The position numbers were made by a program, and so were the translations under genes. Of a stretch of 317 bases of DNA, positions 1 through 190 are shown piece by piece. Source of the DNA: Escherichia coli (GTDB lineage: Bacteria; Pseudomonadota; Gammaproteobacteria; Enterobacterales; Enterobacteriaceae). The notes under the pieces are model-generated. The model did not search any database. It was not told where the DNA came from and saw only the letters and a program-made list of their open reading frames with translations. The stretch's first letter is position 1. Every line of letters starts with the position of its first letter. Location: NCBI RefSeq assembly GCF_003334255.1, contig NZ_QOWU01000264.1; one strand, written 5' to 3'.

Positions 1-128
1 GCGGATCAACGCCACCTGTCCAGGCTCCGTGCGTGAAGCCCCCACCACCTCCGGCGTGGATAATGCAACCGGCCCCCGACTGGCAGACACCGCTGAACGG
101 GATTATTTCATCCTCAGAGAGCGGCTGA
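1..128 (+). CDS. Rz1: Rz1-type o-spanin (outer-membrane lipoprotein spanin subunit), C-terminal portion; 5'-partial, embedded in the +1 frame of Rz
   Basis: Frame beginning at position 3 is open to TGA at 126-128. Hand translation: GSTPPVQAPCVKPPPPPAWIMQPAPDWQTPLNGIISSSESG*. The stretch CVKPPPPPAWIMQP.PDWQTPLNGIIS matches the mature C-terminal part of lambda Rz1 as I recall it, including the penta-proline tract and the single periplasmic Cys (codon 30-32). No signal peptide or lipobox is visible in the window, so the start lies upstream. About 11 of the 41 visible residues are Pro, typical of Rz1. Confidence 0.85.
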   Translation, partial: GSTPPVQAPCVKPPPPPAWIMQPAPDWQTPLNGIISSSESG

Positions 129-190
129 TGACGATGCAGAAGCAACTGGAAGGGGCGCAGGAATATATCCGTACTCAGTGCATTAAGTAG
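1..190 (+). CDS. Rz: Rz-type i-spanin (inner-membrane spanin subunit), C-terminal portion; 5'-partial, gene starts upstream of the window
   Basis: Frame beginning at position 2 is open to TAG at 188-190. Hand translation: RINATCPGSVREAPTTSGVDNATGPRLADTAERDYFILRERLMTMQKQLEGAQEYIRTQCIK*. This closely matches the C-terminal region of phage lambda Rz as I recall it (motifs SVREA, SGVDNA, PRLADTAERDYF, LRERL, TMQKQLEG, QC near the C-terminus). Both cysteines known to be conserved in the lambda Rz periplasmic domain are present (codons 17-19 and 179-181). Identity recalled from memory, not searched. Confidence 0.9.
   Translation, partial: RINATCPGSVREAPTTSGVDNATGPRLADTAERDYFILRERLMTMQKQLEGAQEYIRTQCIK

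Follow-up and report, generated by a model that had tools for sequence, protein, structure and literature searches.

The best described relatives of the locus analysed here are the Rz and Rz1 proteins of phage lambda, which together form a two-component spanin. According to the passages of PMC5295617 and PMC6139136 that cite Berry et al. 2013, the lambda residues Rz C99, Rz C152 and Rz1 C29 form homotypic intermolecular disulfides. In the same passages, the C99 bond is described as dispensable, and either Rz C152 or Rz1 C29 as enough for function; the passage of PMC6139136 citing Berry et al. 2013 adds that the host Dsb system is needed for disulfide formation. Two further elements of the lambda pair are a penta-proline in Rz1, a fusion motif reported to be essential, and a salt bridge between Rz E150 and Rz1 R59, a contact for which charge-to-polar covariance has been described within the lambda family (PMC5295617). 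The conservation of the cysteines across the lambda spanin family is already published (Kongari et al. 2018, PMC6139136), with cdtI, phiEt88 and SfI reported as exceptions. In T4, the spanin PseT.3/PseT.2 likewise needs homotypic intermolecular disulfides. However, its genes are separated and show no sequence similarity to the spanin described below, all its cysteines are located in the o-spanin, where both are essential, and its i-spanin has no periplasmic cysteine (PMC6139136).

The window, i.e. the whole stretch of 317 nucleotides analysed here, very probably carries the 3' end of a spanin cassette from a Stx-type lambdoid prophage, in which the cysteines at the positions of C99, C152 and C29 would form three homotypic disulfides as in lambda. 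Since both the role and the conservation of these cysteines are published and the allele is already in RefSeq, this is a confirmation and not a discovery. The features on which the comparison is based are the following.

2..190, plus strand: 3' end of Rz (i-spanin), last 62 codons and the stop codon TAG at 188-190 (translation, PF03245, lambda alignment)
3..131 (open reading frame 3..125), plus strand: 3' end of Rz1 (o-spanin), last 41 codons and TGA TGA at 126-131 (translation, PF06085)
17..19, plus strand: Rz Cys codon TGT in the context ...RINATCPGSV..., corresponding to lambda Rz C99 by alignment
30..32, plus strand: Rz1 Cys codon TGC in the context ...VQAPCVKPPPPP..., directly 5' of VKPPPPP, corresponding to lambda Rz1 C29
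39..53, plus strand: penta-proline (PPPPP) of Rz1, unchanged relative to lambda (translation)
120..122, plus strand: Rz1 Ser codon at the site of lambda Rz1 R59 (alignment)
173..175, plus strand: Rz Thr codon at the site of lambda Rz E150 (alignment)
179..181, plus strand: Rz Cys codon TGC in the context ...RTQCIK, then TAG, corresponding to lambda Rz C152
205..317 (L001 4205-4438), plus strand: 74-aa open reading frame running off the window, with a Shine-Dalgarno-like GGAGG at 205-209 and ATG at 214

Architecture of the spanin genes and their nearest relative

Read from base 2, the Rz frame yields RINATCPGSVREAPTTSGVDNATGPRLADTAERDYFILRERLMTMQKQLEGAQEYIRTQCIK up to its TAG stop codon, a portion that comprises the linker and the distal helix (CC2). 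The Rz1 frame, read from base 3, yields GSTPPVQAPCVKPPPPPAWIMQPAPDWQTPLNGIISSSESG and is terminated by the tandem TGA. As in lambda, the architecture is embedded: Rz1 is encoded within Rz in the +1 frame, its stop codon at 126-128 lies inside Rz, and Rz itself ends at 190. The window opens at the second base of the Rz1 lipobox Cys codon, which contributes bases 1-2. Translation revealed neither stop codons nor frameshifts in the Rz and Rz1 frames within the window. The two consecutive in-frame stop codons of Rz1 (TGA TGA, 126-131) occupy a position where lambda Rz1 presumably has one TGA. Open reading frames on the minus strand (e.g. 6..68) were dismissed for want of support. Searching Rfam with the window yielded a single sub-threshold match, to the AilA thermometer (20 bits where the gathering score is 81; E 0.75), which was put down to chance.

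The 62 residues of Rz match PF03245 (Phage_lysis, Bacteriophage Rz lysis protein) with an E-value of 9.5e-22 at model positions 66-125 of 126, and the 41 residues of Rz1 match PF06085 (Rz1, Lipoprotein Rz1 precursor) with an E-value of 4.9e-21. The full-length proteins match the 'Rz-like spanin' families phrog_13 (Rz, E 6e-74) and phrog_3198 of PHROG, and a search of NCBIfam gave no match for Rz, Rz1 or the downstream open reading frame. By megablast, the closest genome is the chromosome of E. coli STEC17-183 (NZ_CP075652.1) with 316 of 317 positions identical. Since the only mismatch is base 240 in the downstream open reading frame, bases 1-190 are identical in both. In addition, 380 phage records match the window. 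They are mostly Stx-converting phages at 80-95% identity, and one record reaches 95-99%. The number of places matching the window per E. coli genome has a median of 2 and reaches 13.

The 5' halves of Rz and Rz1 are located upstream of the window, and their intactness is an observation on the nearest relative only. In NZ_CP075652.1 the gene order is class II holin, lysozyme, two small open reading frames, 'lysis protein' (Rz), the 74-aa gene, terminase and portal. Rz is intact there with 152 aa (L001 3732-4190). Its N-terminal membrane segment differs from that of lambda. The segment is strongly hydrophobic, with a mean Kyte-Doolittle value of 2.46 for residues 1-19 compared to 2.63 in lambda, and is located upstream of the window. 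Rz1 is present as an intact 61-aa open reading frame (L001 3943-4128) inside the +1 frame of Rz and is unannotated. It has the signal peptidase II lipobox LVVSAC (VSAC) with Gly at +2, a signal peptide that again lies upstream of the window, and 11 Pro among its 42 mature residues. In lipoproteins of this kind, sorting to the outer membrane goes with a +2 residue other than Asp. The automated annotation of this nearest genome labels Rz alone ('lysis protein'), and the result has little weight other than for a correct annotation. A DUF1327 pseudogene and a hypothetical gene on the minus strand were found between holin and lysozyme (L001 1873-2118). Extra material thus interrupts the lysis cassette of the relative, while its holin, lysozyme and Rz/Rz1 genes are intact.

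For a direct comparison, lambda Rz and Rz1 were translated from NC_001416 and aligned by MAFFT with both fragments from the window and with the full-length proteins of the relative. The Rz fragment shares 75% and the Rz1 fragment 78% identity with lambda, and C99 and C152 of Rz as well as C29 of Rz1 form invariant columns. An earlier note on this DNA, made from the letters alone, had assigned the codons 17-19 and 179-181 to Rz cysteines and the codon 30-32 to an Rz1 cysteine, and had equated the three with the disulfide-forming residues of lambda. Translation in the respective frames bears out the codons, the alignment with both lambda proteins shows the equivalence to be exact, and the disulfide role that the note ascribed to the lambda residues can be found in the passages of PMC5295617 and PMC6139136 citing Berry et al. 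2013. Besides the penta-proline, window and lambda share a distal helix of the type AERDYF...MQKQLEG and the motif WQTPLNGII. Differences include the following: after the first Rz Cys the window has CPGS instead of CQS, an insertion of one residue; the Rz tail ends with QCIK (Cys third from the end) instead of QCR (Cys second from the end); the Rz1 linker has one residue more; and the contact pair is Thr/Ser in place of Glu150/Arg59.

Related alleles of Stx-type and lambdoid origin are found in the STEC17-183 prophage, in phage ASU11, in Stx2_KH16-043 and in H-19B, and records of Stx-type phages are 90-94% identical. Like the window, these relatives have the 74-aa open reading frame downstream. 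H-19B differs in that its Rz has lost the stop codon and carries a C-terminal extension of 37 aa (L163 423-995; PMC6139136), whereas the window keeps TAG at 188-190. The H-19B read-through enters the frame of a 28-aa open reading frame at 210-296 of the window (MYEEITGN...). A few Rz alleles from IMG/VR show a read-through tail of 9 aa, TKLAFYYPED[TIV].

Conservation of the cysteines and signs of selection on two frames

At 75-78% identity, the chance that three given residues are retained is about 0.4 by simple arithmetic relative to lambda alone; the match of the three cysteines to lambda alone is therefore not beyond chance. Moreover, in lambda C99 is dispensable and either of C152 and C29 can stand in for the other, so that function does not require full conservation of the cysteines. 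By themselves the three cysteines are weak evidence of function, and taken alone they would not distinguish an active from a recently inactivated prophage. The comparison was extended to relatives for which Rz and Rz1 were obtained by tblastn-anchored extraction of open reading frames. A scan for related loci seeded with lambda Rz delivered solely lambda-like loci of 97-100%, and a second scan was seeded with an Rz of the window type. In total, 161 loci with paired Rz/Rz1 DNA were collected, representing 65 distinct allele pairs.

In all 161 loci and 65 allele pairs, the three cysteines and the lipobox Cys are invariant. All of the best 120 Rz clusters (84-96% identity) have C99, and 119 have C152. 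The picture is less uniform at larger distance: in 71 full-length-like representatives of clusters formed at 50% identity, which share 39-85% identity with the query, C99 is found in 60 and C152 in 45, while 16 others have a gap at the C152 column. The gapped representatives are largely frameshifted or truncated metagenome calls, and because many such proteins are contained in this set, the raw cysteine counts understate the conservation. The conservation over a broad set of homologs, which the earlier note had proposed as a check, thus holds without exception in the 161 loci and is mostly kept down to about 40% identity.

The least constant of the three is C29 of Rz1, which is found exactly in its alignment column in 95 of the 120 Rz1 clusters. 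The remaining 25 have it displaced or lack it, so that the position of C29 is not strictly diagnostic; its inconstancy is consistent with the published redundancy with Rz C152. In 17 clusters the cysteine lies 2-3 residues further N-terminal (VCPPQTKPP type). About 8 clusters with 70-90% identity (P0136, P0148, P0149, P0178, P0189, P0190, P0210 and P0227) are devoid of a periplasmic cysteine.

At the codon level, the analysis covered 29 different DNA alleles of the window type. None of them deviates at the first or second base of either Rz Cys codon (T17, G18 and T179, G180). Base 19 is T or C, a change that is synonymous for the Rz cysteine and replaces Val by Ala in the Rz1 frame. Base 181 varies synonymously between C and T, and the following codons 182-187 vary in their amino acids. 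G31 serves as third base of an Rz Val codon and as second base of the Rz1 Cys codon. Any base here would preserve the Val of Rz, but all 29 alleles have G. The family-wide conservation and this codon-level pattern do exceed chance.

Substitution rates were calculated for the STEC17-183 allele and lambda. In the part of Rz outside the overlap, dN/dS is 0.25. From outside to within the overlap, dS drops from 0.79 to 0.26, as is expected if both frames code. A further signal was obtained for the residue pair Rz 150/Rz1 59, which among the 161 loci is E/R in 80, T/N in 49 and T/S in 31, with a single exception (E/N). The polar Thr/Ser pair of the window matches the charge-to-polar covariance published for the lambda family. 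Taken together, the synonymous TGT/TGC exchange beside variable flanks, the dN/dS of 0.25 and the covariation of Rz 150 and Rz1 59 point to purifying selection, and these signals agree with a functional, co-evolving spanin pair.

Predicted disulfide bonds, proposed mechanism and alternative readings

These comparisons show that the window holds the end of a canonical spanin of the lambda type which is probably active. By homology, Rz would be located in the inner membrane and Rz1 would be lipid-anchored in the outer membrane. In the periplasm both are expected to form disulfide-linked homodimers, Rz-Rz via its two cysteines and Rz1-Rz1 via the cysteine of its linker, and the disulfides would stabilise the Rz2-Rz1(2) complex. 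Interaction of the C-termini of Rz and Rz1 would lead to a complex spanning the periplasm, and this complex, once the peptidoglycan has been removed by the endolysin, would complete lysis by disrupting the outer membrane. By analogy with lambda, we infer that the disulfides form in the window allele and that the allele is lytically active. The functional, canonical two-component spanin proposed in the earlier note is likewise supported at the level of sequence by open frames, Pfam matches, an intact relative and the dN/dS of 0.25. With respect to lesions upstream, which that note had named as a possible objection, the relative identical over bases 1-190 has none, Rz and Rz1 being full-length there.

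The cysteines might also have been kept by recent shared ancestry and the constraint of overlapping frames only, without selection for disulfides, in which case their presence would be uninformative on function. The identity of 75-78% to lambda, with its chance retention of about 0.4, is in line with such an explanation, as are the low dS across the whole overlap and the fact that the Rz1 Cys codon shares bases with the conserved Val-Arg of SVRE in Rz. However, shared ancestry hardly explains why the cysteines are kept, amid neighbouring residues that vary, in representatives as distant as about 40% identity, why the third bases of the Rz Cys codons change only synonymously next to codons 182-187 that change their amino acids, or why G31 is constant although the Rz frame leaves it free. 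Lambda genetics, as far as given in the passages of PMC5295617 and PMC6139136 on this point, also require C152 or C29. We therefore regard this explanation as unlikely. Somewhat less probable still is an origin of the window from a decaying, non-functional prophage copy with an intact 3' end and genes broken upstream. It would be compatible with the window, which shows just the 3' part of each gene, with the median of 2 and maximum of 13 matching places in E. coli genomes and with the DUF1327 pseudogene inside the lysis region of the nearest relative. Against it, Rz and Rz1 are full-length in the genome identical over 1-190 and include start codons, hydrophobic N-terminus and lipobox, the genes for holin, lysozyme, terminase and portal are neighbours of Rz there, and both frames are free of stops and frameshifts within the window.

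A third possibility concerns the use of the cysteines, which could deviate from lambda, e.g. by heterotypic Rz-Rz1 bonds or by intramolecular bonds between C99 and C152 of Rz. It is suggested by the Thr/Ser contact in place of Glu/Arg at Rz 150/Rz1 59 and by the tail that is one residue longer, with the cysteine third instead of second from the C-terminus, and an isomerisation from intramolecular to intermolecular bonds has been proposed for T4 (PMC6139136). The spacing and the context of the cysteines are as in lambda, for which the relevant passages of PMC5295617 and PMC6139136 report solely homotypic bonds, and the covariation of polar for charged residues at 150/59 was already described in the lambda family (PMC5295617), so that we give this possibility almost no weight. 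Three homotypic disulfides remain the preferred reading.

Going beyond this reading, the C152 and C29 disulfides might be non-redundant in Stx-prophage alleles with T/S (or T/N), and pairing might be allele-specific; at a T/S or T/N C-terminal contact without the lambda salt bridge, the redundancy of C152 and C29 might be lost. Separately, the 74-aa open reading frame might encode an accessory of the lysis cassette that has so far escaped recognition. We consider these ideas improbable. If true, allele-specific pairing would limit cross-complementation among the prophages residing together in one STEC genome.

Region downstream of Rz

In lambda, Rz is followed by bor on the opposite strand, whereas the window type has the 74-aa open reading frame on the same strand. 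Its start lies approximately 23-24 bases past the end of Rz, and it does not belong to the spanin. The product matches phrog_2571, a family of unknown function, with an E-value of 2.8e-28 at profile positions 100-172 of 291, and a Pfam search gave no match for it. The gene was found in just 26 phage records, all of Stx-type or lambdoid phages, and in the records examined it is located directly 3' of Rz. Inside this open reading frame, a scan for promoters and terminators detected a terminator-like hairpin at 250-265 (GGAAC...GTTCC, then a T-rich run), with 1 found compared to 0.2 expected from shuffled sequences. As a terminator it is weak and lies within a coding frame, and it was judged to be probably a chance structure.

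About 80 bases beyond the window, at L001 4399-4728, an open reading frame of 110 aa overlaps the end of the 74-aa gene. Residues 20-64 of its product match phrog_6954, labelled 'Rz-like spanin', with an E-value of 6.4e-14. This could be a mislabelled family or the remnant of a second spanin-like gene.
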